NCBI GenBank assembly: GCA_030390025.1
Contig: JASTWF010000811.1
Span: 62,001-126,000, forward strand
Origin: Squalus acanthias
Lineage: Eukaryota
DNA: 64,000 nucleotides
Reading direction: 5' to 3'
Positions 1,861-51,279 of the stretch are shown one piece after another. Every line of letters begins with the position of its first letter. Within the stretch, counting starts at the first letter, position 1. The notes under the pieces were generated by a model. That model searched no databases, was not told the DNA's origin, and saw only the letters and a list, made by a program, of their open reading frames with translations. A program made the position numbers and the translations under genes.

Positions 1861-4800
1861 ATGGGTGGAGAGAGAGAGAGTGTGATCGGTGGGTGGAGAG
1901 AGAGAGTGTGTGATTGGTGGGTGGAGAGAGAGAGAGTGTGATCGGTGGGTGCAGAGAGAGAGAGTGTGATCGGTGGGTGGAGGGAGAGAGTGTGATCGGT
2001 GGGTGGAGAGAGAGAGTGTGTGATTGGTGGGTGGAGAGAGTGTGATCGGTGGGTGGAGAGAGAGAGAGAGTGTGATCGGTGGGTGGAGAGAGAGTGTGTG
2101 ATCGGTGGGTGGAGAGAGAGAGTGCGATTGGTGGGCGGAGAGAGAGAGAGTGTGATCGGTGGGTGAAGAGAGAGAGAGTGTGATCGGTGGGTGGAGAGAG
2201 AGAGAGTGTGATCGGTGGGCGGAGAGAGAGAGAGTGTGATCGGTGGGTGAAGAGAGAGAGAGAGTGTGATCGGTGGGTGGAGAGAGAGAGAGTGTGATCG
2301 GTGGGTGGAGAGAGAGAGAGTGTGATCGGTGGGTGGAGAGAGAGAGAGCGTGATCGGTGGGCGGAGAGAGAGAGAGTGTGATCGGTGGGCGGAGAGAGAG
2401 AGAGTGTGATCGGTGATGGAGAGAATGAGAGTGTGATCGGTGGGTGGAGAGAGAGAGAGTGTGATCGGTGGGCGGAGAGAGAGAGTGATCGGTGGGCGGA
2501 GAGAGAGAGTGTGTGATCGGTGGGCGGAGAGAGAAAGAGTGTGATCGGTGGGTGGAGAGAGAGAGTGTGATCGGTGGGGGGAGAGAGAGAGAGTGTGATC
2601 GGTGGGTGGAGAGAGAGAGAGTGAGATCGGTGGGTGGAGAGAGTGAGAGTGCGATCGGTGTGTGGAGAGAGAGTGTGTGATCGGTGGGTGGAGAGAGAGT
2701 GTGATCGGTGGGCGGAGAGAGAGAGTGTGATCGGTGGGTGGAGAGAGAGAGTGTGATCGGTGGGTGGAGAGAGAGAGAGTGTGATCGGTGGGTGGAGAGA
2801 GAGAGAGTGTGATCGGTGGGTGGAGAGAGAGAGAGTGTGATCGGTGGGTGGAGAGAGAGAGAGTGTGATCGGTGGGCAGAGAGAGAGAGAGAGTGTGATC
2901 GGTGGGTGGAGAGAGAGAGTGTGATCGGTGGGTGGAGAGAGAGAGTGTGATCGGTGGGTGGAGAGAGAGAGTGTGATCGGTGGGTGGAGAGAGAGAGAGT
3001 GTGATCGGTGGGTGGAGAGAGAGAGTGTGATCGGTGGGTGGAGAGAGAGAGAGTGTGATCGGTGGGCGGAGAGAGAGAGAGTGTGATCGGTGGGCGGAGA
3101 GAGAGAGTGTGATCGGTGCGTGGAGAGAGAGAGAGTGTGATCGGTGGGTGGAGAGAGGGAGAGTGTGATCGGTGGGTGGAGAGAGAGAGAGTGTGATCGG
3201 TGGGCGGAGAGAGAGAGAGTGTGATCGGTGGGCGGAGAGAGAGAGTGTGATCGGTGGGTGGAGAGAGAGAGAGTGTGATCGGTGGGCGGAGAGAGGGAGA
3301 GTGTGATCGGTGGGTGGAGAGTGAGAGACAGTGATCGGTGGGTGGAGAGAGAGAAAGTGTGATCGGTGGGTGGAGAGAGAGAGAGTGTGATCGGTGGGCG
3401 GAGAGAGAGAGAGTGTGATCGGTGGGTGGAGAGAGAGAGTGTGATCGGTGGGTGGAGAGAGAGAGAGTGTGATCGGTGCGCAGAGAGAGAGTGTGATCGG
3501 TGGGCGGAGAGAGAGAGAGTGTGATCGGTGGGTGGAGAGAGAGAGTGTGATCGGTGGGTGGAGAGAGAGAGAGTGTGATCGGTGGGTGGAGAGAGAGAGT
3601 GTGATCGGTGGGTGGAGAGAGAGAGTGTGATCGGTGGGCAGAGAGAGAGAGAGTGTGATCGGTGGGTGGAGAGAGAGAGAGTGTGATCGGAGGGCGGAGA
3701 GAGAGAGAGTGTGATCAGTGGGAAGAGAGAGAGAGAGTGTGATCGGTGGGTGGAGAGAGAGAGTGTGATCGGTGGGCGGAGAGAGGGAGAGTGTGATCGG
3801 TGGGCGGAGAGAGAGAGAGTGTGATCGGTGGGTGGTGAGAGAGAGAGTGATCGGTGGGCGGAGAGAGAGAGAGTGTGATCAGTGGGCGGAGAGAGAGAGA
3901 GTGTGATCGGTGGGTGGAGAGAGAGAGTGAGTGATCGGTGGGCGGAGAGAGAGAGAGTGTGATCGGTGGGCGGAGAGAGAGAGAGTGTGATCGGTGGGTA
4001 GAGAGAGAGAGAGTGTGATCGGTGGGTGGAGAGAGAGAGAGTGTGATCGGTGGGTGGAGAGAGAGAGTGTGATCGGTGGGTGGAGACAGTGAGAGTGCGA
4101 TCGGTGGGCAGAGAGAGAGAGAGTGTGATCGGTGGGCGGAGAGAGAGAGAGTGTGATCGGTGGGTGGAGAGAGAGAGAGTGTGATCGGTGGGTGGAGAGA
4201 GAGAGAGAGTGATCGGTGGGTGGAGAGAGAGAGAGTGTGATCGGTGGGTGGAGAGAGAGAGAGTGTGATCGGTGGGTGGAGAGAGAGTGTGATCAGTGGG
4301 TGGAGAGACAGAGTGTGATCGGTGGGCAGAGAGAGAGAGAGTGTGATCGGTGGGCGGAGAGAGAGAGAGTGTGATCGGTGGGTGGAGAGAGAGAGAGTGT
4401 GATCGGTGGGTGGAGAGAGAGAGAGAGTGTGATCGGTGGGTGGAGAGAGAGAGTGTGATCAGTGGGTGGAGAGAGAGAGTGTGATCGGTGGGTGGAGAGA
4501 GAGAGAGTGTGATCGGTGGGCGGAGAGAGAGAGAGTGTGATCGGTGGGTGGAGAGAGAGAGAGAGTGTCATCGGTGGGTGGAGAGAGAGAGTGTGATCGG
4601 TGGGTGGAGAGAGAGAGTGTGATCGGTGGGTGGAGAGAGAGAGAGTGTGATCGGTGGGTGGAGAGAGAGAGTGTGATCGGTGGGTGGAGAGAGGGAGAGT
4701 GTGATCGGTGGGTGGAGAGAGAGAGAGTGTGATCGGTGGGTGGAGAGAGAGAGAGAGTGTGATCGGTGGGTGGAGAGAGAGAGTGTGATCAGTGGGTGGA

Positions 4801-7800
4801 GAGAGAGAGTGTGATCGGTGGGCGGAGAGAGAGAGAGTGTGATCGGTGGGTGGAGAGAGAGAGTGTGATCGGTGGGTGGAGAGAGAGAGAGTGTGATCGG
4901 TGGGTGGAGAGAGAGAGTGTGATCGGTGGGTGGAGAGAGAGAGTGTGATCGGTGGGCAGAGAGAGAGAGAGTGTGATCGGTGGGTGGAGAGAGAGAGAGT
5001 GTGATCGGAGGGCGGAGAGAGAGAGAGTGTGATCAGTGGGAAGAGAGAGAGAGAGTGTGATCGGTGGGTGGAGAGAGAGAGTGTGATCGGTGGGCGGAGA
5101 GAGGGAGAGTGTGATCGGTGGGCGGAGAGAGAGAGAGTGTGATCGGTGGGTGGTGAGAGAGAGAGTGATCGGTGGGCGGAGAGAGAGAGAGTGTGATCAG
5201 TGGGCGGAGAGAGAGAGAGTGTGATCGGTGGGTGGAGAGAGAGAGTGAGTGATCGGTGGGCGGAGAGAGAGAGAGTGTGATCGGTGGGCGGAGAGAGAGA
5301 GAGTGTGATCGGTGGGTAGAGAGAGAGAGAGTGTGATCGGTGGGTGGAGAGAGAGAGAGTGTGATCGGTGGGTGGAGAGAGAGAGTGTGATCGGTGGGTG
5401 GAGACAGTGAGAGTGCGATCGGTGGGCAGAGAGAGAGAGAGTGTGATCGGTGGGCGGAGAGAGAGAGAGTGTGATCGGTGGGTGGAGAGAGAGAGAGTGT
5501 GATCGGTGGGTGGAGAGAGAGAGAGAGTGATCGGTGGGTGGAGAGAGAGAGAGTGTGATCGGTGGGTGGAGAGAGAGAGAGTGTGATCGGTGGGTGGAGA
5601 GAGAGTGTGATCAGTGGGTGGAGAGACAGAGTGTGATCGGTGGGCAGAGAGAGAGAGAGTGTGATCGGTGGGCGGAGAGAGAGAGAGTGTGATCGGTGGG
5701 TGGAGAGAGAGAGAGTGTGATCGGTGGGTGGAGAGAGAGAGAGAGTGTGATCGGTGGGTGGAGAGAGAGAGTGTGATCAGTGGGTGGAGAGAGAGAGTGT
5801 GATCGGTGGGTGGAGAGAGAGAGAGTGTGATCGGTGGGCGGAGAGAGAGAGAGTGTGATCGGTGGGTGGAGAGAGAGAGAGAGTGTCATCGGTGGGTGGA
5901 GAGAGAGAGTGTGATCGGTGGGTGGAGAGAGAGAATGTGATCGGTGGGTGGAGAGAGAGAGAGTGTGATCGGTGGGTGGAGAGAGAGAGTGTGATCGGTG
6001 GGTGGAGAGAGGGAGAGTGTGATCGGTGGGTGGAGAGAGAGAGAGTGTGATCGGTGGGTGGAGAGAGAGAGAGTGTGATCGGTGGGTGGAGAGAGAGAGT
6101 GTGATCGGTGGGTGGCGAGAGAGAGAGTGTGATCGGTGGGTGGAGAGAGAGTGTGATCGGTGGGTGGAGAGAGAGTGAGTGTGATCGGTGGGTGGAGAGA
6201 GAGAGAGTGTGATCGGTGGGTGGAGAGAGAGAGAGTGTGATCGGTGGAGAGAGAGAGAGAGTGTGATCGGTGGAGAGAGAGAGAGAGTGTGATCGGTGGG
6301 TGGAGAGAGAGAGAGTGATCGGTGGGTGGAGAGAGAGTGTGATCGGTGGGTGGAGAGAGAGAGAGTGTGATCGGTGGAGAGAGAGAGAGTGTGATCGGTG
6401 GGTGGAGAGAGAGAGAGTGATCGGTGGGTGGAGAGAGAGTGTGATCGGTGGGTGGAGAGAGAGAGAGTGTGATCGGTGGGTGGAGAGAGAGAGATTGTGA
6501 TCGGTGGGCGGAGAGAGAGAGAGTGTGATCGGTGGGTGGAGAGAGAGAGAGTGTGTGATCGGTGGGTGGAGAGAGAGAGTGTGTGATCGGTGGGTGGAGA
6601 GAGAGAGAGTGTGATCGGTGGGTGGAGAGAGAGAGTGTGATCGGTGGGTGGAGAGAGAGAGAGTGTGATCGGTGGGTGGAGAGAGAGAGAGTGTGATCGG
6701 TGGGTGGAGAGAGAGAGAGTGTGATCGGTGGAGAGAGAGAGAGTGTGATCGGTGGGTGGAGAGAGAGAGTGTGATCGGTGGGCGGAGAGAGAGAGTGTGA
6801 TCGGTGGGCGGAGAGAGAGAGTGTGATCGGTGGGTGGAGAGAGAGAGAGTGTGATCGGTGGGCTGAGAGAGAGAGTGTGATCGGTGGGCGGAGAGAGAGA
6901 GTGTGATCGGTGGGTGGAGAGAGAGAGAGTGTGATCGGTGGGCGGAGAGAGAGAGTGTGATCGGTGGGCGGAGAGAGAGAGTGTGATCGGTGGGCGGAGA
7001 GAGAGAGTGTGATCGGTGGGTGGAGAGAGAGAGAGTGTGATCGGTGGGTGGAGAGAGAGAGAGTGTGATCGGTGGGTGGAGAGAGAGAGAGTGTGATCGG
7101 TGGGTGGAGAGAGAGAGAGTGTGATCGGTGGGCGGAGAGAGAGAGTGTGATCGGTGGGTGGAGAGAGAGAGAGTGTGATCGGTGGGTGGAGAGAGAGAGT
7201 GTGATCGGTGGGTGGAGAGAGAGAGAGTGTGATCGGTGGGTGGAGAGAGAGAGAGTGTGATCGGTGGGTGGAGAGAGGGAGAGTGTGATCGGTGGGTGGA
7301 GAGAGAGAGAGTGTGATCGGTGGGTGGAGAGAGAGAGAGTGTGATCGGTGGTTGGAGAGAGAGAGAGTGTGATCGGTGGTTGGAGAGAGAGAGAGTGTGA
7401 TCGGTGGGCGGAGACAGAGTGTGATCGGTGGGTGGAGAGAGAGAGAGTGTGATCGGTGGGTGGAGAGAGAGAGAGTGTGATCGGTGGGTGGAGAGAGAGA
7501 GTGTGATCGGTGGGTGGAGAGAGAGAGTGTGATCGGTGGGCGGAGAGAGAGTGTGATCGGTGGGTGGAGAGAGAGAGTGTGATCGGTGGGTGGAGAGAGA
7601 GAGTGTGATCGGTGGGCGGAGACAGAGTGTGATCGGTGGGCGGAGAGAGAGTGTGATCGGTGGGCGGAGACAAAGTGTGATCGGTGGGCGGAGAGAGAGA
7701 GAGTGTGATCGGTGGGCGGAGAGAGAGAGAGTGTGATCGGTGGGTGGAGAGAGGGAGAGAGTGTGATCGGTGGGTGGAGAGAGAGAGTGTGATCGGTGGG

Positions 7801-9090
7801 CGGAGACAGAGTGTGATCGGTGGGTGGAGAGAGGGAGAGTGTGATCGGTGGGCGGAGACAGAGTGTGATCGGTGGAGAGAGAGACAGAGTGTGATCGGTG
7901 AAGAGAGAGACAGAGTGTGATCGGTGGAGAGAGAGACAGAGTGTGATCGGTGGAGAGAGAGACAGAGTGTGATCGGTGGAGAGAGAGACAGAGTGTGATC
8001 GGTGGAGAGAGAGACAGAGTGTGATCGGTGGAGAGAGAGACAGAGTGTGATCGGTGGAGAGAGAGACAGAGTGTGATCGGTGGAGAGAGAGACAGAGTGT
8101 GATCGGTGGAGAGAGAGACAGAGTGTGATCGGTGGAGAGAGAGACAGAGTGTGATCGGTGGAGAGAGAGACAGAGTGTGATCGGTGGAGAGAGAGACAGA
8201 GTGTGATCGGTGGAGAGAGAGACAGAGTGTGATCGGTGGGCGGAGAGAGAGACAGAGTGTGATCGGTGGGCGGAGAGAGAGAGTGTGATCGGTGGGCGGA
8301 GAGAGAGAGTGTGATCGGTGGGCGGAGAGGGAGAGTGTGATCGGTGGGCGGAGACAGAGTGTGATCGGTGGGCGGAGACAGAGTGTGATCGGTGGAGAGA
8401 GAGACAGAGTGTGATCGGTGGAGAGAGAGACAGAGTGTGATCGGTGGAGAGAGAGACAGAGTGTGATCGGTGGAGAGAGAGACAGAGTGTGATCGGTGGA
8501 GAGAGAGACAGAGTGTGATCGGTGGAGAGAGAGACAGAGTGTGATCGGTGGAGAGACAGAGTGTGATCGGTGGAGAGAGAGACAGAGTGTGATCGGTGGA
8601 GAGAGAGACAGAGTGTGATCGGTGGAGAGAGAGACAGAGTGTGATCGGTGGAGAGAGAGACAGAGTGTGATCGGTGGGCGGAGAGAGAGAGTGTGATCGG
8701 TGGGCGGAGAGGGAGAGTGTGATCGGTGGGCGGAGACAGAGTGTGATCGGTGGGTGGAGAGAGACAGAGTGATCGGTGAATGGAGAGAGAGAGAGTGTGA
8801 TCGGTGGGTGGAGAGAGAGAGAGTGATCGGTGGGCGGAGAGGGAGAGTGTGATCGGTGGGCGGAGACAGAGTGTGATCGGTGGGCGGAGACAGAGTGTGA
8901 TCGGTGGGCGGAGACAGAGTGTGATCGGTGGGCGGGTGCAGAGTGTGATCGGTGGGCGGGTGCAGAGTGTGATCGGTGGGCGGAGACAGAGTGTGATCGG
9001 TGGGCGGAGAGACAGAGTGTGATCGGTGGGCGGAGACAGAGTGTGATCGGTGGGCGGAGAGGGAGTGTGTGATCGGTGGGCGGGTGCAGT
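1861..9090. repeat. ~7.2-kb minisatellite, unit GTGATCGGTGGG(T/C)G(GA)nGT, about 24-30 bp
   Basis: Directly visible tandem array. A more homogeneous 26-bp variant (GTGATCGGTGGAGAGAGAGACAGAGT) dominates about 7860-8660. Confidence 0.98.
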
Positions 9091-9134
9091 CCTGGTTCTC
9101 CTGACTCAGAAGTTGTGCTGAAATACGCTCTTAC

Positions 9135-9561: not shown

Positions 9562-9814
9562 CTGTTTAAAACCACATTAACAACAGACTTCCTTTCAGTT
9601 GGTTTGTTTTTGAATTCAGGCAGGAGCACTTTGGCTGTCCATGGAATTTTAATTTCTTATTGTTCTTATAAACCTACAACTTTTTTGTGAAAATAAAGCA
9701 CTTGCCATCTTGGACTGGGTTCATCCTCCCCCTGCCCTGCTGTGGGAAGGTTAAGCAGGTCCCGGTGCGATGCTGATCCTGTGAACATGCCAGTGATGGC
9801 TAATATTTACTTAC

Positions 9815-10162
9815 CGGTGACATTGAGCGGGGTTCCTGCTCCATCGATATGGCCCCACACACTGCAGGTATAGACAGCGGTGTCACTGAGCTGCACGCCT
9901 GTGATGGTCAGAATGAAGCTGTTACTGGTGACATCCCTGGCAGAGTTAAAATGGGCAGGAAAACTCTGGTACTTTTTCAATTTATTATTTATGTAATGAA
10001 TTAACATCTTCTCCTTCTTTGTACCAGGCAGCTGCCGGTACCAGTGAACATCCACTTCATTCACGTTGGCATTCTTCATGGAACACGGTAAGCTCACTGT
10101 CTGACCCTCTCTCACACTGTGGACTGTCGGAGACTGAACCAGCACTGGGGCCGTCGCTGCAC
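9815..10162 (-). CDS. Ig V-set domain exon with germline-joined J-like segment (exon 2 of an antigen-receptor-like gene)
   Basis: Acceptor ttccattcacag at 10163/4 and donor G|gtaagt at 9814, phase 1-1. Reads (G)AATAPVLVQSP...SLPC...VHWYRQLPG...LTITGVQLSDTAVYTCSVWGHIDGAGTPLNVT, with the canonical Cys, WYRQ, DxAxYxC and GxGTxLxV. Confidence 0.93.
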
Positions 10163-10202
10163 CTGTGAATGGAACCGGTGAGTAAATAAATATAACTTCA
10201 AA

Positions 10203-10640
10203 TAAGAAAGACTTGTATTTCTATCGTGCCTTTCACCACCTCAGGACATCCCAAAGCGCTTTACAGCCTGGTGTGTCGTCACTGTTGTAATGTAGGAAAC
10301 GAGGCAGCCAATAGCGCACAGCAAGCTCCCACAAACAGCAATGTGATAATGACCAGATTTTTTTTTTTTGTTATGTTGATTGAGGGATAAATATTGGCCA
10401 GGACACTGGGGATAACTCCCTGATCTTCTTCGAAATAGTTCCATGGGATCTTTTACATCGACCTGAGAGAACAGACGGGGCCTCGGTTTAATGTCTCATC
10501 TGAAAGACAGCACCTCCGACAAAGCAGCACTCCCTCAGCACTGCACTGGGAGAGTCAGCCTAGATTTTTGTGCTCAAGTCTTCGGAGTGGGACTTGAACC
10601 TTCTGACTCAGAGGTGGGAGTGCCACCCCTCGAGCCACAA
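10203..10640 (-). mobile_element. tRNA-derived SINE (DeuSINE/SacSINE-like) with L2-type 3' tail
   Basis: The reverse strand starts with a tRNA-like head (ggttcaagtcccac B box). It ends with ggctgtaaagcgctttgggatgtcctgagg...aaaggcacgatagaaatacaagtctttctt. Confidence 0.7.
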
Positions 10641-10906
10641 CGGACTCTCGATAAAGCAAGAACAATAAATAATCTCAGCATTTGCTACATGCTGCATTTA
10701 ATATGGTTCTTTGCAAGAGAATAAATCATTAGATTTTTACTCTTTAATATTTAACTGCGCTACCAAATAGTGCCGCACTGTAAATAGTCCATCCAAAGAA
10801 GGCGCCTTCTCATTGAGAAGCAGATTTCACCCTTTCACACCCCCTGCACTGCCCAATAATCCCACAGTACAAAGTATTCAGTCCAAATGATGTCCTTCTC
10901 CAAGAG

Positions 10907-12043
10907 TGTGAAGGAATAAGCCATATAACCTATTCAGAAAAATACACAATTCTATGAAAGAATTCTGGCCTTATTAAAACATGACAAACTGGGTTTGGAA
11001 ATCTAGAAACCTAACTATGGAAAAGCTGTGATAACATTCTGGCTATAGAGATAAGATAGTTGTTGACACTGAATCAATAACCTTATTGAAACAGAAGGTT
11101 AAAGGCTCCTGATAGACTGACATTTGGGAACAAGTCAATAGTTCACCCTGGTTAAGGTGTTCTAATTTACACTTCATAAAGAAGCACAAACAACTGCCTT
11201 CGTAAAAATGACATCAAGTAAAAAACGCACCTGCTGTTACACCATTTTTTATGGTAAACTTGGAACACCTAGAGATGAGACACGATTCTGTAATACTACC
11301 AGCTGAGGTGACTAAAAATTGCAGAAGTCAGCAGAAAAATGACTAGAGATAATTAGCTTACATCAGCAGAAAACCTTAAAGGCAATACCACTGGAAAAGG
11401 GTATAAATATTGAACTCTCAAATGGGATAGTAGACTCGCTGTAAAGGGGCAAAGCGATTCTCAGCTTCAGAGGCAGGCTCTGTAAGTCTTCAACTCTTTG
11501 TACCTCGGGGGTCAAAGGTACTGTATTTGATTTTGGTGGATATCCTGTAGAAAACTAAGAACTGTTAAACTGTAGCGAAGTTAAGATTTGAGAGTAAGGA
11601 TCTCTGATAATAAGATTGTAAAGGTTTCTCTTTTTGGAACTGTTAATGTTGCAATTGACTCACCAACTGTAAATTACATGTCGGTTCTTTAATAAATCTA
11701 TATATTTTTAGAATTGTCTCACATAATATTTCTGTATCAAACTCGCAAACTCAATCTCTGTACACTGTTTGGTGAGGAATTGCAGAATTCTGGGGGAGTT
11801 TTCCGGACCCTCATAATATCCGAAAGGTTACAGTCTAGCTAAACTTATTAAATGCGCTATCTGGAGGATGGTAACATTTTCAGGTTTTTCCTTTCCTTTA
11901 GGGAGAGATGGTCCAGACCTTCAGACCCAATTAAGCGTCTTTAGGATTCGGCTACCTCAAACTTTAGTTGAAAGTGAACGTCTGAGGAATACACCTGAAC
12001 TGGGCTAGCCCCAAAGGGGCGAGGACTAGTAAATATCCCTTCA
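10907..12043 (+). repeat. 5' LTR (1137 bp)
   Basis: TG...CA ends; TATAAA 11402-11407; GTAAGT 11482-11487; AATAAA 11691-11696; matches 15952-17077. Confidence 0.95.
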
Positions 12044-12045
12044 GT

Positions 12046-12063
12046 TGGCGCCCAACGTGTGTG
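12046..12063 (+). promoter_or_regulatory. Primer-binding site, tRNA-Lys1,2 type
   Basis: TGGCGCCCAACGTG lies 2 nt after the LTR CA. It matches the first 14 nt of the Lys1,2 PBS (TGGCGCCCAACGTGGGGC) used by foamy viruses. Confidence 0.9.
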
Positions 12064-12306
12064 TTAACGACTTGATACAGAACCTATACTTATATTTATA
12101 TCGATATCCATCTTGTAGGTTGTTAAGTATAGAAGGAGTGTTTTACTGACAGTGGTACTAAGACCCAGATTTAAGTCTCTAGAGATGACAAGTCCCTGAT
12201 CAGGCCTTGTAGAACTTAAATCAGAACTCCCTCAATATACCATTGAGGTCTAGAAATTTCTTATAAAGTTCATATTAAACCGTAACCGAGGTTAGGTCTT
12301 GACGAA

Positions 12307-15300
12307 ATGGCATACCCTGTCGGAATTGGCCAAGTCTTTTTATTAGGAAATTCAAACGATTGCTTTATTAGGGGAAATAATCCTATCCATGTACCTCCAC
12401 AAGACCAAGTAATTATTTTTGATGGATCATCAATGACGATTAAAAAAGGGACATCCCAACAATCCTCAGCTGGGAGGGACTTTGAGATTCCTTTGAGATA
12501 GTAGTAGGGACTTTGAGATTCCTATTTTTATCCAGAAGAATTACTGTCCATACCCCTTGGCCATAAGTCAGCGCAATATGCTGAAGCCGCAGCACTATGG
12601 TATGCTTTAGAAAAGGCAGACCCTATTAAACCCACACTAATCTGTACGGATAGTGACTACTGTAAAAGAGGATATAACCAAGATCTAGTTTTCTGGGAAC
12701 AAACACATTTTTACCAATCATAAGGGTAAACTCATAAAACATAAGTCATTGTGGGAAGACATTCTTCGTTCGAGAATGGAGAAACAGAATTGTCAGGTGA
12801 TTCATGTAAACGGGCATACCACTGGGACAGTACACTCAAAAGGAAACAGTCTTGCAGACGAACAAGCGAAACGTTCGGTCTGCATGACACCCCCTCGAGA
12901 GGGGCCTGCCAATATTAGTGTTATCACTAGGGCAGAACTGGCAGCTAATCAGGATAAGGAACTGATTCAGCTATTAGACCCAACAAAAGAGAATCCACCA
13001 GGATATCCACCAAAGTACTTTTACTCGGAAACCCCTACGGGCATTCTGCTAGTTAAGTTGCCCAAGGGAAACCGAGAAGTACCCCCGAGACACAAACGAG
13101 AACAGCTTGTAAAAGAATCTCACGAGGGCATAGGTCAAGCACATTGTGGTGCCAGAACAACATTCTGCAAATTGACTCCTTTATATTGGTGGCCAGGCAT
13201 GCTTAAGGCCTGTAAAACATATGTGGCAAATTGTGAGCCATGCAATTTAACCAATAAGTCATCACTAATTAAGCCACCACCATTGGCTCCTGTGAAAGCT
13301 GATGAGCCAATGGGAAAATTCATTATTGACTTTATTGGACCACTTCCCCCATCTTTGGGATACAGACATGTTCTCGTTTGTGTAGATGGATGCACTTCCT
13401 TCTGCTGGCTGGTCCCCACAAAAACTGTTTCGGAAAACGCACTCGCCAATGCTATTACTGACATAATTACTGTAGTCGGTGCACCCAAAATCTTACACAC
13501 CGATCAAGGCGGAGCCTTTGTATCCAAGGTCTTCAAAGACTACTGCGAACAAAGGGGGATTGGGTTAGAGCACAGCACGCCACGTCATCTGCAATCAGCG
13601 GGGCTGGTGGAACATAAAAACTAGGAAGTAAAAAAGCTATTGGTCAAACTGTTGAGAATCAGGGGAAATAAGTGGACCACCGTCATTCCGGAGGTGCAGC
13701 TATCACTTAATAATGTGCCCGCATCTGCATCAGGGACAGTGTCCCCTAAAACTCCATATTATCTGATGTATGGGGTTGAGATGCATACACCGCTTATCCA
13801 TAGTTCTTTAATTGAACATAAGAACATAAGAACATAAGAAATAGGAGCAGGAGTAGGCCAATCAGCCCCTCGAGCCTGCTCCGCCATTCAATAAGATCAT
13901 GGCTGATCTGATCCTAACCTCATATCTAAAGAACACAAGAAGTAGGAGCAGGACCCGGCCACTCAGCCCCTGGGCCCGCTCCGCCACCCACAGGGCCTCG
14001 ACCGATCCAAACTCAGCCTCATGTCCAATTTCCTGCCCGCTCCCCATAACCCCTAATTCCCTTTACTTCTAGGAAACTGTCTATTTCTGTTTTAAATTTA
14101 TTTAATGATGTAGCTTCCACAGCTTCCTGGGGCAGCAAATTCCACAGACCTACTACCCTGTGAGTGAAGAAGTTTCTCCTCATCTCAGTTTTGAAAGAGC
14201 AGCCCCTTATTCTAAGATTATGCCCCCTAGTTCTAGTTTCACCCATCCTTGGGAAGATCCTTACCGCATCCACCCGATCAAGCCCCTTCACAATCTTATT
14301 TGTTTCAGTAAGATCGCCTCTCATTCTTCTGAACTCCAATGAGTAGAGTCCCAATCTACTCAACCTCTCCTCATATGTCCACCCCCTCATCCCCGGGATT
14401 AACCGAGTGAACCTTCTTTGTACTGCCTCGAGAGCAAGTATGTCTTTTCTTAAGTATGGACACCAAAACTGTATGCAGTATTCCAGGTGCGGTCTCACCA
14501 ATACCTTATATAACTGCCTGTTTTTATAATCTATCCCCCTAGCAATAAAAGCCAACATTCCGTTGGCCTTCTTGCATACTAACTTTTTGATTTTCTTGCA
14601 CTAGGACCCCCAGATCCCTTTGTACTGCAGTACTTTCCAGTTTCTCGCCATTAAGATAATAACTTGCTCTCTGATTTTTCCTGCCAAAGTGCATAACCTC
14701 ACATTTTCCAATATTGTATTGCATCTGCCAAATCTCCGCCCACTCACCCAGCCTGTCTATATCCCCTTGTAGGTTTTTTATGTCCTCCTCACTTTCTACT
14801 TTCCCTCCCATCTTTGTATCATCTGCAAACTTTGATATGTTACACTCGGTCCCCTCCTCCAAATCGTTAATATAGATTGTAAAGAGTTGGGGACCCAGCA
14901 CCGACCCCTGCGGAACACCACTGGCTACCGGTTGCCATTCCGAGAATGAACCATTTATCCCAACTCTCTGCTTCCTGTTAGATAACCAATCCTCCACCCA
15001 TTGCCTCTACACTCTCTGATTCCTTGACCCAACAGCGACAGTTAGATTTAAAAAAAGAAGTAACAGAGGAGATCATCAAATTGATCAGAGGATAAGGGAG
15101 GCAAATAGGCAGAAAAAGTTGACAAACAAAGCATGGCAACCCCTAGCAGGAGAATTGGTACAGGAAAAGAAGTTCGAGCAAAAACCTGGTTTAAGATCTA
15201 AGTGGAAAAAACCTGTTCAAATACATTCTGTTATTAACGAAAGAACAGTTAAAATACATATTAATCAGCCGAATGGCAAGCATATTCTTAAAACTGTCTC

Positions 15301-15337
15301 CATAGACAATCTCAAAAGATGTCCTGCGGGATACTGA
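12307..15337 (+). pseudogene. pol: Foamy-like pol remnant: RNase H plus integrase, disrupted by stops, frameshifts and a CR1 insertion
   Basis: RNase H: IIFDGSS, IPLGHKSAQYAEAAA, ICTDSDY, GNSLADEQAK. Integrase: GYPPKY extension, HHCC (H..AH..YWWPGM..CEPC), KFIIDFIGPLPPS, HTDQGGAF, VEHKN, and a C-terminal WQPLAGELVQE...TVSIDNLK, all resembling prototype foamy virus IN. Confidence 0.93.
13815..14999 (-). mobile_element. 5'-truncated CR1 LINE inserted into the proviral integrase
   Basis: RT motifs GVPQGSVLGP and FADDTK, (TTCTTATG)n tail, TSD ATTG (13811-13814 / 15000-15003). Removing it restores the integrase frame (SSLIASTLSDSLTQQRQL). Confidence 0.93.
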
Positions 15338-15940
15338 AATGGAGGAACAATACAAGGTGCAGTCGTACACTGTCTTCCAAGACCCAGCTTGGAGCACGAC
15401 ACAGGAAATGGAGGCGATCGAACTACTGACGATGGTCAGCCAGACAGTGTCGCCGACACCTCAGGAATTGGATTCACAAAAAGTCACAACCGAAACAAGT
15501 AAAGATCAATGAGTTACTTCAACGAAGGAGGAAAACACTGCGGATGGAGAAGGAATCAACTGAGCTCCTGGCAAAGCCTTCACGAAAACAAGAATCTGTC
15601 CACACGCTGGATCAATGGAACAGCGTGTCAAGCTTCAGCTAGTTCCAAATGATGTCTCCTTGACTCGTATGAATAACTCACCTCTACGGAAAGTACATCT
15701 GGCAATTGGACATTCTAAGTACATGTTGTTTCGCTAATTGCATGACAATGTACCTATCATCCTTTTAATTTGTGTTCCATTTAAAATAAGGCAAAACTTT
15801 GTCCTGGGAAATACTTAAAAGGAATTTTCATGTAGCACATGATTAGGCTCTTGTGAATCTCGTGAATTTAATATGATATTGTAACCTTATTAGTAAAATT
15901 GACCAAACACTGCCCTGATGTTTTGATCTCATTTTTTGGT

Positions 15941-15949
15941 AAAGAGGGG
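15941..15949 (+). promoter_or_regulatory. Polypurine tract
   Basis: AAAGAGGGG immediately upstream (plus TG) of the 3' LTR. Confidence 0.85.
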
Positions 15950-15951
15950 TG

Positions 15952-17077
15952 TGTGAAGGAATAGGCCATACAACCTATTCAGAAAAATACACCATTCTAT
16001 GAAAGAATTCTGGCCTTATTGAAACATGACAAACTGGGTTTGGAAATCTAGAAACCTAACTATGGAAAAGCTGTGATAGCATTCTGGCTATAGAGATAAG
16101 ATAGTTGTTGAAACTGAATCAATAACCTTATTGAAACAGAAGGGTAAAGGCTCCTGACAGACTGACATTTGGGAACAAGTCAATAGTTCACCCTGGTTAA
16201 GGTGTTCTAATTAACACTTCATAAAGAAGCACAAACATCTGCCTTCGTAAAAATGACATCAAGTAAAAAACACACCTGCTGTTACACCGTTTTTTATGAT
16301 AAACTTAGAACACCTAGAGATGAGACACAATTCTGTAATACTACCAGCTGAGGTGACTAAGAATTGTAGAAGTCAGCGATAAATGACTAGAGATAATTAG
16401 CTTACATCAGCAGAAAACCTTAAAGGAAATACCACTGGAAAAGGGTATAACTATTGAACTCTCAAATGGGATAGTAGACTCGCTGTAAAGGGGCAAAGCA
16501 ATTCTCAGCTTCAGAGGCAGGCTCTGTAAGTCTACAACTCTTTGTACCTCGGGGATCAAAGGTACTGTATTTGATTTTGATGGATATCCTGTAGAAAACT
16601 AAGAACTGTAAAACTGTAGTGAAGTTAAGATTTGAGAGTTGGGGATCTCTGATAATAAGATTGTAAAGTTTTCTCTTTTTGGAACTGTTAATGTTGCGAA
16701 TGACTCACCAACTGTAAATTACATGTCGGTTCTTTAATAAATCTATATATTTTTAGAATTATCTCACATAATACTTCTGTATCAAACTCGCAAACTCAAT
16801 CTCTGTACACTCTTTGGCGAGGAGTTGCAGAATTCTGGAGGAGTTTTCCAAACCCTCATAATATCCGGAAGGTTACAGTCTAGCTAAACTTATTAAAAGT
16901 GCTATCTGGAGGATGGTAACATTTTCAGGTTGTTCCTTTCCTTTAGGGAGAGATGGTCCAGACCTTCAGACCCAATTAGGCGTCTTTAGGATTCGGCTAC
17001 CTCAAACTTTAGTTGAAAGTGAACGTCTGAGGAATACGCCTGATCCGGGGTAGACCTAAAGGGTAAATATCCCTTCA
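15952..17077 (+). repeat. 3' LTR (1126 bp)
   Basis: Direct repeat of 10907-12043, followed by TSD AGAG. Confidence 0.95.
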
Positions 17078-17229
17078 AGAGGACTCACACTTGCTAAACT
17101 CACACCCTCTCCTCCTGCCTGATCTGAATTATTGACCAGCTTGCTTTTGCTCACAAGCTGGCAGGTTACTCTGTATTTAATGATGTACAATAACAGTATT
17201 GAACAGGAAAGGGGGAAATTGTTTGTGGG

Positions 17230-22212: not shown

Positions 22213-22689
22213 GAATGGGCTAGAAATTTGTTATAGCCAAGGAATGGCGATGTTAGGACAAACGATGTTGAATTAGTGCCAGGGGAAAATGCTCTACACT
22301 GCACGCAAAATTCGTCCTCACTGCTCAATAAATTACTTAGGGGGAGAAATTCATTTGGAGCGCAATTATCGGCCGGGCGCAAAGATTGGCGCCTGGTGCT
22401 AATTATCGCCTCTGATTGCAAACTTGACTTCTATCGCCCCTGGAGGTGATTGGAGCGCTAAATCAGGCGCTACACACCTGTCTTAAGGCGCAAAGGCCGA
22501 GGAGCAAGGCGCTAACTCAGAGCGCGGGCGCAGCGCAGGTGCTGTCAGTTAGCGATGGAACACAGACACACTGGCGCCCGACAGTTCTTAAAGGGGAGGG
22601 TCGATCTTGCACTCCAGCCACACCCTGCTCATTGGAGCCTTGAATCTCGGCCTGGAGAGACCTGTGCCTAAATCGTCCAGCCAAGGACT

Positions 22690-24563
22690 ATGGAGAGGGT
22701 GAGAGAACGAGCTCAGTGCTTCAGCGAGCGGGCCTTGGATGCTCTGGTTGGCACGGTGGAGCGCAGAAAATCTATACTCTTCCCTGAGAGTGGCAGGAGG
22801 CCTTTGCCGCGCGAGTACAGAAGAGTGTGGAGGGAGGTGGCTCAGAGCGTCTCCTTCAGGAGCATGGTGCCCAGGACCCATATACAATGTCGAAAAAAGT
22901 TCAACGACATCAGTCGGATCGTCAGGATGAGTGGCTTTTTTTCAATACCTCTCCATCCCTCCATCTCAACCTCACTCTATGGCCAGAGGGTCTTAAAACC
23001 CCAATGCCCAACACTCATCCAACACCTATGGCCCTCTTATGAAACACACACGCACATTCCACACTTTGCATACAGTAAGGGCTATTCACCTATGGGAGGC
23101 ACATCAGCCAAGACCATGGCTGCATACAGTAAGGGCTATTCACCTATGGGAGGCACATCAGGCAAGACCATGGCTGCATAAAGTAAGGGCTATTCACCTA
23201 TGGGAGGCACATCAGGCAAGACCATGGCTGTATATTTACTCAGACGCCGTCCTTTTTCTTGCAGGCCAAGCTATCTCATAATAGGAGACAGCAGCAACGG
23301 ACGGGTGGAGGGCGGCCTCAGCTGCAACCCCTCAGCGATCTTGAGGCGCGCGTCCACAGGATTGTGGCAAGCCGGGTGATCGGTCCCGTCGCCACTGGAG
23401 ACGTCGACCCCGTTCTGTACAGCAATGGTAAGGTCATCACCTTTTTGTCCTCTGTCCTTCCACTTGTCCCTCACAACACCAGCCTTTGACACTTTCAATC
23501 CAACTTACTAAATCGCTGCACTCATTCCTCCCTTACTGCCCCCCTGTCCTCATGCTAAAACCACTCTTGTACCTCCCTGCTTTCAGATGGTGATTCACCA
23601 GCTGAGGAGACGAGCCCTCAAGCTGCCAGTGGGAGTGAAGCTGCAGGCGAGGAGGAAGATGAAGGCGGAGCATCAGTGCCACCCTCTCCCGAGGAAGCCC
23701 ATGCCCACACTGGGAACACGCCTTCCCTGGAGGGGAGTAGGGGGGAAGGGTCTGATAAGGGTGAAGCTCCAGGACCCAGCGGGCTGCAGCAACGCCATGG
23801 GGGTAGGGAAGAACGGGGGCCTTCTCCCCGGAGGGAGAGTATGCCAGCGAGTCCTGCTGCACTGGACACAGAGGAGGAGCAGCTCATCGCTGAAATGAAC
23901 ACCCAGGCGGTGGACATGCACACTGAGCTCATGGGTGCAGTGGGAAGGGTGCCCGAATGCATTGAATCACTGGCAAGGAGTGTGGAGCGCTTTGCTGGAG
24001 CACAGGCGGATGCCACGCAAATGTTTAGCGCTGCTATTCAGTCACTGGCTGCCATGAACCCATCTCTGACTGCTCTCCTGCAGACTCAGATTGAGGCCAC
24101 GCGAGCACTGACTGCTGCCATCCTCGATGGTTCGTGCACATGTCCCCGGGGCTGTCACCGCGCCGCAGCAGGCCAGCAATCTGTGCTCCAGCAGATTGCT
24201 CCGGATGCTGAAGTGCTGCCCCGTGGGAGTGCCAGTGTGTCGGTCGAGCAGGGAGTTGCTGTCCTCTCTCAAGATGACAGCATTCCTGCTGCCACCACTG
24301 TCACTTCCCCATTGCACTTGCCACCGCCTGTAGCCCAGACTGCTGCCGCCCATGCAGAGTTGGTGCAGTCTGCAGCCGGGCCCTCCAGGCCCAGAGCTGG
24401 TCGAGGCCGTCCTTCAAGGGCATCTGCAGTCTCAGGTTCTGACAATCAGCAGCCTTCCAGCAGCCTTGCTGCAGCCACTGAGGTCCCATTACGGAGGAGC
24501 AGTAGGGTGGGAAGGGGGGAAGTGCGCAAGGGAAGGAGATCACCCTCGAAGAGCAAAAAGTAG
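22690..24563 (+). CDS. Harbinger Myb/SANT-like DNA-binding protein, 3 exons (22690-22926, 23265-23427, 23587-24563; about 458 aa)
   Basis: RAQCFSERALDALV...WREVA...RTHIQCRKKFND | AKLSHNRRQQQRTGGG | acidic/coiled-coil part. Exon phases 0 and 1 fit. The intron-1 donor reads ATGAGT rather than GTGAGT. Confidence 0.8.
23068..23230. repeat. 54-bp tandem repeat x3 in intron 1 of the Myb gene
   Basis: gcatacagtaagggctattcacctatgggaggcacatcag(c/g)caagaccatggct at 23068, 23122, 23176. Confidence 0.9.
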
Positions 24564-24862: not shown

Positions 24863-26011
24863 CTAGAAGCGGCTTGCTATCAGCCGTTGACAGACGGCCC
24901 TTCCAGTTTCTACATTGTGGGCCTCCCTCCCGCCTTGGTGCTGCTGATGATCATCCTTCTCCTCTTCCTCCTCCTCCTCTGGTGGTGCTCCAAGGCCTGG
25001 TGGCATTGGCTGGGTCCTGAGGATTGGCAGGTTATACAGCATGCAGCACACAACTACGAAGTGGGAGACTCGCTCAGGCGAGTACTGCAGTGCTCCTCCA
25101 GAATGGTCCAGACAGCGGAACTGTTGCTTGAGCACGCCGATTGTGTGCTCAACGATGTTCCTGGTAGCGAGATGGCTCTCGTTGTACCGCAGCTCAGCAG
25201 GGGTGTTGGGCGTACGGAGCGGTGTCATCAGCCAGGTGCTCAGTGGATATCCCTTGTCCCTGAGAAGCCAACCAACTGGCTGATGTGGTGCCTGGAAAAG
25301 TTCTGCCACAGTAGTCTGGCGCAGGATGAATGCATCATGGCAGCTGCCAGGATAGTGGGCATTGACAGCGAGTATCAGCTGTCTGTGGTCACAGACCAAC
25401 TGAACGTTTAAGGAATGGAACCCCTTTCTGTTGCGGAAATCCTTGGCATTCTCATGCGGAGCACGCAAAGCCACATGCGTGCAGTCAATGGCACCCTGCA
25501 CCATGGGGAAGCCCGCTATCCTAGCAAAGCCCATTGCGCATTCTTGCTGCTTGTCCAGGGTCATGGGGAAAGAGATGTACTCTCGTTTCCTTTTAAAGTG
25601 GGCATTTGTGACCTGACGGATGCAGCAATGCACCGCGAACTGGGAGATATTGGCGATGTCCCCAGTAGCTGATTGAAATGAGCCAGTGGCATAAAAGTTC
25701 AGAGCCACTGTGATCTTCACTGCCACCGACAGAGACGTCCTGGACCTCAGTTGAGGCTGCAGATCTGGCTGCAGCAGGTGGCAGAGCTCAGTGACCACCT
25801 CCTTGCTGAAGCGCAGCCTTCGCAAACACTGCTCCTCAGTCATATTAATATATGTGAATTGTTGGCGATATACCCTGGGAGGGTAAGGTGTCCTGCACAG
25901 AGGCCTGTTGGCCCTCCTCCGTCTGGCCATGATTGCCACTCTCTCTCTGTGTCTCTGTGTCCTCTGATTCTGGTGGCGCAGGACGACGCACCCAATCAGT
26001 GCAGCCCCCAT
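24863..26011 (-). CDS. Harbinger (HARBI1-like, DDE_Tnp_4) transposase, uninterrupted ORF of 382 aa from the ATG at 26011
   Basis: GAIDCTH, NRKGFHSLNVQLVCD, PGSCHDAFIL, DKGYP, RNIVEHTIGVLK. Confidence 0.92.
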   Translation of the reverse strand: MGAALIGCVVLRHQNQRTQRHRERVAIMARRRRANRPLCRTPYPPRVYRQQFTYINMTEEQCLRRLRFSKEVVTELCHLLQPDLQPQLRSRTSLSVAVKITVALNFYATGSFQSATGDIANISQFAVHCCIRQVTNAHFKRKREYISFPMTLDKQQECAMGFARIAGFPMVQGAIDCTHVALRAPHENAKDFRNRKGFHSLNVQLVCDHRQLILAVNAHYPGSCHDAFILRQTTVAELFQAPHQPVGWLLRDKGYPLSTWLMTPLRTPNTPAELRYNESHLATRNIVEHTIGVLKQQFRCLDHSGGALQYSPERVSHFVVVCCMLYNLPILRTQPMPPGLGAPPEEEEEEEKDDHQQHQGGREAHNVETGRAVCQRLIASRF

Positions 26012-27802
26012 AGACTCTTGGCAATCAAAGTTATGAAGGTCAAAAACCAAAGTACCTGCAAAGTTATGATCAGTAGCCAAAACTACCTCACACAGCGTTG
26101 ACTCAATGCAGAAGTCTCTCTTTCTCTCTCTCCAAATCTCTCTCTCTCTCTCTCAGAACGAGTGGTGCAAAAATGTCAACCACAGAGAAAGACAGGAAGA
26201 GGCCCCCTTTAAATAACGCCCCCCCAGCCCCACAGCGACTGGGGAGCGTTCCAGTCTTCCGGTCGTTGGTTGCACCAGGCGGAAAGGATGGGGGCGCCAC
26301 TCAATTTCTGCTCCGGGGCGCCACAAGGGCGTTGCACCTTCGTATGACGTCAAGATCTGCTTGCGCAGGAGATCGCGGCGGTAAAGTTTAGCAACACCGC
26401 AAAATGTCTAGTTAATTTCGCGAGCGGCGCAAACATCGTTGCGCCCGGGCACCAGTTGCTTTGCGCTCCATTAGCACCCTCTTAAGGCGCTAACGGGAGG
26501 CGCAACCAACTGAATTTTTCCCCCTTAGAGTCTTAAATCAAGTCTAAAAACCCAAGCTCATTGGCGTTACACTTAAAGGCTGGACCAATATCGGAGGCAG
26601 TCTAATCGCAACTCATGATTGCCACAGGCTATTTTCACTACTTAAAGGGGAGGTTCATTGATGCTGCAGCACCTCATTCTCTGCATTGTTGTGTGTGTAG
26701 CTGCCTCAACAACCATAAGAAGAAAAACAAGGCGAAGGAGCACTTATTTACAAATCCTCATGGCAGATCGCCGCCCCACGGAGAGAGCCCGCAGGTTTGC
26801 CCATGAAGCTTTGGAGGCATTGGTTTTTAGCACTGGATAGAAGGCAGGCAGTCCTGTACCCACCAACTGGCAAGAGGCCCTCGCCACAAGTCTGCCGTAC
26901 TATGTGGAGGGAGGTTGCATACCACATCACGGACCACCCATCCAGAAACCAGATTGTTTGGCTACCACCTCCTTCCATCCTGTTCCTCATCTTCTTCATC
27001 CTCATCCTCTTCCTCCTCGTCCTATTCCTCCTCGTCCTCTTCCTCCTCGTCCTCTACCCCTCGTCCTCTTCCTCCTTACCCTCTTCCTCCTCACCCTCTT
27101 CCTCCTTGCCCTCTTCATCCTCATCCTCTTCCTCCTCATCCTCTCCTTCCTTGTCCTCTTCCTCCTCGTCCTCTACCCCTCACCCTCATCCTCCTCGCCC
27201 TCTTCCCTCTGCGCACATGTTCCTGTCTTTCTTGCTGCCTATGCTCCCTCCGCCATAGATCCTGGAGGGCGAGGTGGCATGCCAGTATAGCCCCTATTAA
27301 TCTTACCAAGTGTTGCAGTTTGAATCTTCGAAGAATAAATGTAGCTACTTTATACTTGCTACAAGACTCCTGCTGCAAAAGAACCTCGAAATTACTCAAT
27401 GAAACTGTTGCAGTAGCTGAAACTAACAAAAAGCCACTGAAACTGCACTAACCTGACAGGTGTAAGTGATTACTGATGATCACTTTAAATAACATCCCTG
27501 CAGCCAGCTTCCTGGTGCAGCACGCCAGCTCTCCCTGTCGGTGTTTACTCCAGGCGGTGAGGTAAGTGGGTAAAAGCAATTTGGGAAATCTGGCGTTCAG
27601 TGAGCATTACACACTCACTGACGTCATGATCTCCCTGGTGGTGAGGTCCCCGGCGATAGCTGTTACCGGCAGCACTATGGGGGGGGTCCCGATTTGGTGG
27701 GCGGTGCTGGATTCACATCGCCCTGTCGGTACTGGTTTCAATGCCACATAAGCGCCATCTACTGGCGCTAACAGGTGGCGCTCAGGGGATGAATTTTTCC
27801 CC

Positions 27803-45731: not shown

Positions 45732-46634
45732 GGGGGTGAAATTCAGTATCGCCCCGTTTGGGGCGCGATTATTGGCCGGGCGCAAAGTTTAGCGCCTGGC
45801 GCTAATTAGCGCCTCTGACTGCAAACTTGGCTTTTATCGCCCCTGGAGGTGATTGGGGCGCTAAATCAGGCGCTACACACCTGTCTTAAGGCGCAAAGGC
45901 CGAGGAGCGAGGCGCTACCTCAGAGCGCTGGCGAAGCTCATGCGATGTCAGTCAGCAATAGAACACAGACACACTGGCGGGGGACAGTTCTTAAAGTGGT
46001 GGGGGGGGGGGGGGTCGATCTTGCTCTCCATCCACACCCTGCTCATTGCAGGCTTGAATCTCGGCCTGGAGAGACCAGTACATCAATTCTGCTGGAAAGA
46101 ACAATGGAGAGGCCCAGGGAAAGAGCTCAGACTGCAGCCCCCATATTCTCTTCTAAATCGATGCAAGGAAGATCAAACCAGAAAGAACCTGCAAAGTGCT
46201 GCTCAGTACCCAAAACTCCTCAACACAGCTTTGAATATCTCCTGCAGTCTCTCTCTCTCACTCAGAATGCGTGGTGCAAAAATTTTGCTGACAAAAAAAG
46301 GCAGGAAGCGGTCGCCTTTAAATAGCGCTCCCCCAGTCCCTTCCAGACTGCAAAACGCTCCCCTCAACCTGTCGTTGCTAGCAGCAGGCGGTAAGACAGG
46401 GGGCGTCACTCAATATCCGGTCCGGGGCGCTACCGGGGCATTGCACTCTCGACTGACGTCACGATCGGCCGGCGCAGGAGAACGTGGCGGTAGTGTTTAG
46501 CACCGCCGCAAAATGTCTAGTTAATTTCGTGAGCGGCGCAAACATCGCCGCGCACGGGCGCTAGTTGTTTTGCGCCCCATTAGCGCCCTCTTAAGGCACT
46601 AACGGAAGGCGCAAACCAACCGAATTTTTCCCCC
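45732..46634. mobile_element. Non-autonomous deletion derivative related to the 22340-26524 Harbinger
   Basis: TIRs GGGGGTGAAATTC / GAATTTTTCCCCC, TSD TAT; subterminal sequence collinear with both ends of the large element. Confidence 0.9.
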
Positions 46635-51200: not shown

Positions 51201-51279
51201 GTGTCTGTGTTGACTCCAACAGTGGCGGTTGGGGACCCGCAGGCTGAACAGGGGTAAAATGACTGGTCAGCATTCCCGC

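Follow-up and report, generated by a model that had tools for sequence, protein, structure and literature searches.

Evidence for a gutted, non-autonomous provirus of an extinct foamy-clade family in the genome of Squalus acanthias

Introduction

What kind of retrovirus left behind the provirus at positions 10907 to 17077 of a 64,000-nt stretch of Squalus acanthias DNA (contig JASTWF010000811.1), and how did so reduced an element come to lie there? The whole stretch is called the window here, all coordinates are its own, and the provirus reads along its plus strand. An initial annotation, made from the letters alone, described an endogenous foamy-like provirus with both long terminal repeats (LTRs) and its cis signals in a probable shark genome. 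What that description overlooked is that the copy is gutted and non-autonomous, and this changes the reading of the locus. We consider it quite probable that the element is a non-autonomous copy of an extinct shark foamy-clade endogenous retrovirus (ERV) that reached its present form by the steps proposed below.

Structure of the window copy

The provirus has lost most of its coding sequence in two blocks. About 3.3 kb comprising the gag body, protease (PR) and reverse transcriptase (RT) is missing, with gag codon 33 fused in frame to the start of RNase H, and about 3 kb of env is gone around 15591-15625, leaving the first ~85 Env codons and a 35-nt relic of the start of the transmembrane (TM) region. 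This relic was recognised only through comparison with sister copies, and a Pfam search of all six frames of 15300-17077 returned no family. The integrase (IN) is in turn split by a 1185-nt long interspersed nuclear element (LINE), a piece that we take to be of the CR1 type, with its own ATTG duplication (13811-13814 and 15000-15003); the same site is empty in sister copy L042, and the LINE was evidently inserted after integration of the provirus. Open frame 12689-13621 covers the end of RNase H together with the zinc domain and core of integrase. Judging from its reading frames, the copy is dead, gutted and non-autonomous, because RNase H carries frameshifts, integrase carries an in-frame stop and the remaining genes are missing.

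The ends of the provirus are preserved much as first described. The LTRs, originally put at ~1.13 kb, measure 1137 and 1126 nt, the 4-bp AGAG target-site duplication is present on both sides, and the polypurine tract (PPT) lies directly before the 3' LTR (Table 1). Foamy integrase yields 4-bp target duplications, and in this family exact ones flank 16 of 20 solo LTRs that are complete, as well as 14 of 17 proviruses. The 5' LTR has a TATA-like motif at 11699 and an ATTAAA at 11847, which may have the roles that such motifs imply; among loose pattern matches at the fetched loci, some of them due to chance, the exact form occurs in 71 of 128 for the former and in 87 of 134 for the latter. The 5' LTR length falls inside the reported foamy range of 950-1700 nt (PMC6955096). 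The Lys1,2 primer-binding site (PBS) stands as annotated, with a 14-nt match after a 2-nt spacer; it agrees with the PBS published for human foamy virus in the first 14 nt and not beyond (PMC3386198). Nearly all copies show this 14-nt match followed by a common divergence (window 12046-12063); a longer foamy-type ending occurs in one of 32 copies, the env-bearing L061, and the divergent ending persists although plus-strand copying of the tRNA should restore the foamy type.

Placement in the foamy clade

The integrase carries the two motifs noted at the outset, FIIDFIGPLPPS at 13319 and TVSIDNLK at 15293, and its N-terminal extension aligns to the integrase of prototype foamy virus (PFV) from residue 10, with an E-value of 2.7e-53 compared with 1.5e-8 for Ty3. 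In an IN tree of 30 rows the window integrase falls inside the foamy clade (support 98/97), apart from the Gypsy-like rows, as the first identification would lead one to expect. In an RT tree of 37 rows the family groups with a Scyliorhinus torazame protein and an unnamed Gag-Pol protein (99/98), and this group forms with newt and mammalian foamy sequences a clade (98/96) that excludes ray-finned fish proteins, Callorhinchus milii proteins, other retroviruses and the presumed Gypsy rows. Two rows were left out of the IN tree and three rows without RT out of the RT tree; coelacanth, reptile, bird and published shark sequences are absent from both, and the 'gypsy' rows are proteins so labelled by inference, Ty3 in the pairwise comparisons being the only named Gypsy element. 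The RT region of one sister copy is 40-44% identical to mammalian foamy Pol.

The genes that the window copy has lost point the same way where sister copies retain them. Of five sister-copy frames from the gag region, four contain Gag_FV_central (PF20672; E 2e-15 to 2.6e-9), with no zinc-knuckle family (Cys-His box) listed by Pfam, and Foamy_virus_ENV (PF03408) gave 11 matches at 6 loci, all adjoining family sequence. Spuma_A9PTase matched at E 9.3e-6 over profile positions 92-156 only, the active-site part matching RVP weakly. That the element is instead a Ty3/Gypsy element or a non-foamy retrovirus with foamy-like motifs might be argued from the absence of env in the window copy and from the in-frame gag-pol that is, as general knowledge, frequent in such elements. 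We regard this as highly improbable, since both trees, the foamy Gag and Env domains and the similarity to PFV over Ty3 all place the element with foamy viruses, and the family Pol has a tether and second RNase H.

Some expected foamy traits were not seen. Weighing against our overall reading and against strict membership, the window internal region holds no perfect central PPT copy, only an 11-nt purine run at 15162 that is presumably equivalent to the PFV central PPT site. The ~0.5 kb between the end of env and the LTR, in the env-bearing copies looked at, contains broken frames without a Pfam match and no recognisable accessory gene (tas, bet). The element belongs to the foamy-virus clade and not to Ty3/Gypsy, and the foamy Gag and Env domains also argue against lokiretrovirus membership. 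We file it as foamy-clade and not as a strict member of Spumaretrovirinae because its Pol layout lacks a separate start, a criterion of layout only. A weak search with the window IN frame found no homologue at E 1e-20 among 1890 longer-protein candidates, and an IMG/VR scan with the family Pol returned no relative.

Two proteins met in these comparisons deserve separate mention. P0014, a Logan protein, is a full Pol that lies within the mammalian foamy radiation, apart from the named viruses. In P0016 (Scyliorhinus torazame scyTo_0007882) the gene model joins a foamy-like RT to a PR/SET domain, which is probably an annotation artefact and possibly a true fusion.

Family size, env loss and short forms

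Copy counts are from the 3.71-Gb source genome, and exact junction patterns are 25-mers. The LTR query gave at least 40 matches at >=94% among those listed, from 5051 first-look candidates, and 22 of 30 fetched LTR loci were solo LTRs; with the integrase core, 150 of 150 scored matches were at >=88%. At end branches near 0.022, roughly 60% of copies would be expected to match an exact 25-mer, and on this basis we estimate 300-400 internal-bearing copies. The rarity attributed to endogenous foamy viruses by the initial annotation does not hold here, with hundreds of copies in this genome and 293 foamy-like elements reported from a catshark (PMC10699275); its statement that such ERVs are known from cartilaginous fish is borne out by the accounts of elephant shark (PMC5512871) and catshark (PMC10699275).

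Loss of env dominates the family. The env-deletion junction of the window has 194 exact genome matches, compared with 10 that are undeleted at that point. These ten might be taken for env-bearing copies, a reading that fails for six of the seven that were fetched, which are env-deleted variants that also lack most of env. In two samples, every copy whose 3' end could be seen has the deletion (15 of 15 and 6 of 6); env-bearing loci number about 6-7, and env-less copies account for about 95% of the family. In gag, the junction site is intact in 128 matches, whereas 39 have the junction of the window and 37 have a second one; both of these major gag-RNase H junctions keep the reading frame and lead into the start of RNase H. 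We fetched 20 of the 39 short copies, all at separate loci: each of the 14 with a visible 3' end carries the env deletion, and an exact 4-bp duplication flanks 11 of the 12 with both ends in view. The short copies are taken as separate integrations because they have 4-bp duplications of their own.

Kimura two-parameter (K2P) distances between paired LTRs are 0.023-0.048 for short copies (12 copies), 0.027-0.049 for long env-less copies (4 copies, one more at 0.072) and 0.029-0.053 for env-bearing copies (4 copies), with none below 0.02 among the pairs measured; pair L070 (K2P 0.080, no duplication) was excluded from these ranges as a probable recombinant. The DNA tree is star-like for env-less copies, and env-bearing copies fall outside the star. 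Among env-bearing copies the pairwise ratio of replacement to silent polymorphism per site (pN/pS) in env is 0.48 (15 pairs), which may be read as a sign of purifying selection and an infectious phase. The family also occurs at high depth in sequencing-run contigs of four organisms (window 9700-13800 compared), which suggests that it predates their split.

Other deletions recur among the copies. L059 and L108 retain a long stretch of env and both lack everything between late gag and the beginning of integrase; since the deletion is common to the two, this PR-RT-less, env-carrying form would also have been copied. A subfamily with a ~990-nt deletion inside gag keeps the pro junction (C5:19056648, C5:19057119; L033). 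At different loci, L043 and L047 carry a 717-747-nt insertion at the same point of the integrase tail (window 15260), and L080, L081 and L086 break at one shared point near window 13520.

Spread of the env-less and short copies

We propose that a virus of the form LTR-gag-pro-pol-env-LTR entered the shark germ line and that deletion of env, with the N-terminal piece and the 35-nt relic left behind, gave rise to the env-less copies that now prevail; the copies in the genome document both of these steps. The env-less copies would then have multiplied within germ cells through retrotransposition, because foamy capsids depend on Env for budding. Switching of templates by the reverse transcriptase may subsequently have removed the gag body, PR and RT at least twice, as the two junctions suggest. 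Helper proteins would then have packaged and copied the resulting ~5-kb RNAs in trans, and these RNAs would have undergone recombination with the genomes of the helpers. The window copy would finally have integrated tens of millions of years ago, decayed neutrally and gained its LINE.

Because the 5-kb form encodes no Gag, PR or RT and yet reached many integration sites, it must have had help in trans, and env-less helpers are the most likely source of the proteins. The RNase H-IN stretch of the window groups with that of long copies (96/88, with an unsettled bootstrap), as would follow from recombination with helper RNA. Foamy budding is reported to require Env, and primate foamy genomes can retrotranspose within cells (PMC3705263). 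Two observations weigh against the simplest form of this scheme. The LTR ages of env-bearing and env-less copies overlap, so that env-less RNAs could have spread by pseudotyped reinfection, and the short copies do not form one RNase H-IN clade (8 label changes, at least 2 forced; bootstrap not settled), so that the junction may have arisen more than once.

The first observation leads to the alternative that the germ line was reinfected from outside the cell by env-less and short genomes, packaged in particles with Env from co-resident env-bearing proviruses or circulating virus. Env-bearing copies of equal age whose env was under purifying selection would be suitable donors, as could L059 and L108 have been. 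Set against this are the scarcity of env-bearing loci (~6-7 versus at least 194 env-deleted), the separate star of the env-less copies in the DNA tree and the ability of primate foamy genomes to retrotranspose inside cells (PMC3705263). We therefore judge reinfection unlikely and intracellular copying the likeliest route.

Comparable histories are found among env-less superspreader ERVs and their non-autonomous partners, in which env loss was likewise followed by high copy number and deleted derivatives were copied in trans. IAP and MusD/ETn are env-less or non-autonomous examples of the orthoretrovirus type, and env-less 'superspreader' ERVs are reportedly the subject of work by Magiorkinis et al. 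in 2012. Our literature search, which mostly did not extend to subscription papers, found no report of an env-less foamy superspreader.

Gag-pol layout and expression of Pol

In the fuller copies gag, pro and pol share one frame with a single recurrent stop between gag and pro. This codon is TGA in 10 of 12 fetched copies, and the 100 listed of 143 genome matches comprise TGA 79, TGG 16, TGC 4 and TAA 1; TGA is also found in the sole env-bearing copy that spans the site. The protease DTG motif follows 29 codons past the stop with no Met before it, and of the 11 copies folded, nine have their first in-frame Met past the DTG and the other two have a damaged motif. Such a layout (one frame, TGA, no ATG before the protease) does not match a Pol with its own start from a spliced mRNA. 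Because of the shared frame, the TGA and the lack of an ATG before the protease site, readthrough is most likely, rather than a spliced pol mRNA, and the helpers would have made Pol as a Gag-Pol fusion by UGA readthrough. Mammalian foamy Pol is reported to come from a spliced mRNA, and artificial Gag-Pol fusions can work (PMC5035957).

Two features of the site weigh against readthrough. Only a weak hairpin follows the UGA (z -0.2 to -1.7, within the shuffles), and a phase-0 CAG lies 18 nt after the start of the stop codon and could act as a poor splice acceptor. Pol might then have been made separately from Gag, from a spliced mRNA or a non-AUG start as is the rule in foamy viruses (PMC5035957, PMC3705263), with a frame shared by chance, for which the prior is 1 in 3. 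This we find unlikely, in view of the missing in-frame ATG ahead of the protease site, the lack there of any AG with more than 9 pyrimidines in the 15 bases upstream, and sister protein P0015 (Logan, 1687 aa, 11-kb contig), whose Gag-Pro-Pol frame is unbroken by any stop. An LTR exon ending in ATG that donates the Pol start by splicing was considered and ruled out, an ATG being present in 15 of 88 LTRs and thus not conserved. A readthrough-promoting hairpin was likewise a candidate; a hairpin is present, but not above shuffled sequences. In the literature searched, mostly outside subscription papers, we found no report of gag-stop readthrough for a foamy-clade virus.

As a separate observation, the subfamily with the deletion inside gag has no stop at the gag/pro junction in 7 of 16 pairs (6 TGG, 1 TGC; judged by eye), compared with 20 of 100 overall.

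Retention of the RNase H-integrase stretch

What the short form retains is the leader, a 50-100-nt piece of gag, and the part of pol that begins at the counterpart of PFV Pol residue ~594 (of 1143). Foamy vectors are reported to need two cis-acting sequences, CAS-I, which spans R-U5 through the first 200 nt of gag, and CAS-II, which covers ~1.8 kb in 3' pol (PMC5035957), and the retained regions match these packaging signals as judged by position only. We propose that the RNase H-IN stretch was kept mainly as RNA, as a CAS-II counterpart, and less for the protein it encodes. In short copies, private changes number 250 replacement to 72 silent, with sites at 1334:379, which is neutral (p 0.94); those of long copies are 78:45 (p 0.0005).

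Several points temper this proposal. The long set was chosen by IN similarity or long frames, a bias that bears on its lower ratio; neutral private changes are expected in any star-like burst; and changes shared among short copies (28:10) are too few to judge. Two further shared junctions, with 2 copies each, keep less of RNase H. Against a pure RNA role, the two major junctions preserve the frame, for which random joining would give a probability of 1 in 9, and the catalytic residues are present, as would be expected if an in-frame Gag-leader/RNase H/IN protein were used or if the open frame blocked nonsense-mediated decay. Such a role for the protein or frame is a real though minority possibility, which the absence of visible purifying selection in changes private to or shared within short copies and the coincidence of the retained stretch with CAS-II by position make less attractive. 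It can be compatible with retention as an RNA signal.

Age of the insertion

The LTR pair differs by 50 substitutions in 1125 aligned columns (32 transitions, 18 transversions), giving p 4.4% and K2P 0.046 +/- 0.007. The earlier count by eye of about 15 substitutions in the first ~380 nt (~4%) proves to be exactly 15 in 380 nt, and the view that the insertion is datable and not recent is upheld by the full alignment. At an assumed rate of 0.5e-9 per site per year (PMC10699275) the insertion would be 46 Myr old, and at an assumed 2.2e-10 (PMC4422223) it would be 105 Myr old. Among run contigs of the four organisms mentioned above, no listed piece bridged the flank-LTR junction (window 9700-13800). 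The locus has a duplicate on contig C262 that is 99.5% identical (13 mismatches in 9403 columns), either a second haplotype or a very recent duplication.

Provirus features and host neighbourhood

Table 1. Features of the provirus and the neighbouring V exon, in window coordinates
Feature	Position	Strand	Basis
Left target-site duplication AGAG	10903..10906	+	Sequence
5' LTR, 1137 nt, TG...CA	10907..12043	+	LTR pair comparison
tRNA-Lys1,2-type PBS, 14-nt match, 2-nt spacer before	12046..12059	+	Published foamy PBS (PMC3386198)
Leader; with R-U5 and gag start, putative foamy CAS-I counterpart by position	12060..12306	+	Position only
gag codons 1-33, ATG at 12307	12307..12405	+	Comparison with sister copies
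In-frame deletion junction, gag start/RNase H start, 17-nt microhomology	12406..12422	+	Sister copies
RNase H, broken: duplication and frameshift 12475-12523, frameshift near 12689	12423..12946	+	
Integrase N-terminal extension, HHCC zinc domain, core (D, D, E present); in-frame stop 13622-13624	12947..13814	+	
5'-truncated LINE, presumably CR1-type, 1185 nt, short-repeat tail	13815..14999	-	RVT_1 match; empty site in sister copy L042
Integrase core end and C-terminal SH3 domain (SH3_11); 11-nt purine run at 15162	15000..15337	+	
Env N-terminal piece (leader peptide), ATG at 15339, stops inside	15339..15590	+	83% identity to env-bearing copy L062
env TM-start relic, 35 nt, flanked by two deletions (surface (SU) and TM regions gone)	15591..15625	+	Sister copies
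Post-env region; no accessory frame recognised	15626..15940	+	Frames, Pfam
3' PPT plus TG (purines 15941-15949)	15941..15951	+	Sequence
3' LTR, 1126 nt, TG...CA	15952..17077	+	LTR pair comparison
Right target-site duplication AGAG	17078..17081	+	Sequence
Germline-joined V-set exon, shark multi-V immune-type receptor	9816..10160	-	Protein comparison

The provirus had been placed antisense within an immunoglobulin (Ig) gene intron. The antisense orientation to the V exon at 9816-10160 stands; the Ig gene does not, since the exon belongs to a multi-V receptor and a window scan found no convincing heptamer-nonamer recombination signal sequence (RSS) near it. A rearranging Ig or T-cell receptor gene was ruled out, the exon being germline-joined without an RSS. 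Its best matches are multi-V membrane proteins of two sharks (50-55%), and all 11 matches among longer proteins come from these two, which accords with the presumed shark origin of the DNA. The exon is one of a cluster of dozens (79 matches). A candidate leader exon at 35529-35478, 25 kb upstream, has identical matches only on C262 and C131, and the intronic position of the provirus depends on it.

Large clusters of germline-joined, single-exon V domains also lie on contigs C262, C3676 and C3553 and are unnamed in the shark annotations seen; they probably encode multi-V immune-type receptors with tail tyrosine motifs. Within the window, 62114-62046 (-) matches the cytoplasmic tail of these receptors (70% over 23 aa), and because of this tail match another cluster gene probably ends there. 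Elsewhere a 429-aa frame at 24863-26152 (-), which we take to resemble a Harbinger/PIF transposase, adjoins a second at 22672-24563 (+), presumably Myb/SANT-like, and similar ends lie at ~26100-26390 and 46200-46500. Long tandem arrays with a strong, steady base skew occupy about 2000-9100 and 51000-61000.

Relation to known elements and significance

A cartilaginous-fish endogenous foamy virus is reportedly described by Wang, Chen and Cui (J Virol 97:e01816-22, 2023), with a shark host and a Pol at the base of the tetrapod foamy viruses. The Scyliorhinus torazame protein with which the window family groups is an indirect proxy for that virus, and the two probably represent the same lineage. 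Shark endogenous foamy viruses are in any case already published, and the window family may overlap a published lineage.

The shark family shares with the exogenous mammalian foamy viruses (prototype and simian, PFV/SFV; equine, EFV; feline, FFV) the IN extension and SH3 domain, YVDD, the Gag and Env domains, long LTRs and a Lys-type PBS. Unlike them, it places gag and pro-pol in a single frame that a TGA interrupts, provides no ATG for Pol, shows neither a recognisable accessory gene nor a perfect central PPT, has a PBS match of 14 nt in most copies, and is present as hundreds of endogenous copies that lack env. ERV-Spuma.0-Sca of the small-spotted catshark, compared by description only, is likewise a foamy-like shark family, with 293 elements and insertions dated to at most ~36 Myr, and is reported with ray-finned fish elements, whereas the window family lies outside the ray-finned clade (PMC10699275). 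CmiFLERV of the elephant shark and the ray-finned foamy-like ERVs (FLERVs) also have a foamy-like Pol and a 'gggtg' PPT-LTR boundary; C. milii and ray-finned proteins branch outside the clade of the window family in the RT tree, and teleost gag and env are described as lacking homology to foamy viruses, unlike those of the window family (PMC5512871, PMC5210030). Proliferation by trans complementation has already been suggested for AciFLERV and AliFLERV (PMC5512871, PMC5210030). For amphibian foamy-like ERVs, genomes with 18-131 copies have been reported (bioRxiv 2020.12.18.423569), and endogenisation is regarded as difficult for foamy viruses (PMC10581153).

The single locus is an ordinary dead copy, and the interest lies in its family: the env-less amplification, the vector-like derivatives and the gag-UGA-pol layout. 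We suggest tentatively, and with slightly more doubt than confidence, that this shark branch made Gag-Pol by UGA readthrough and then became an env-less germ-line retrotransposon whose 'vector' derivatives map signals like CAS-I and CAS-II. Separate, spliced expression of Pol is a textbook hallmark of foamy viruses; if the suggestion is true, it would not be universal in the foamy clade. The in-frame gag-UGA-pol, the loss of env and the hundreds of copies would together mean that separate Pol expression and difficult endogenisation are both changeable traits, and the deletion series would constitute a natural map of the RNA regions that were needed in cis tens of millions of years ago.

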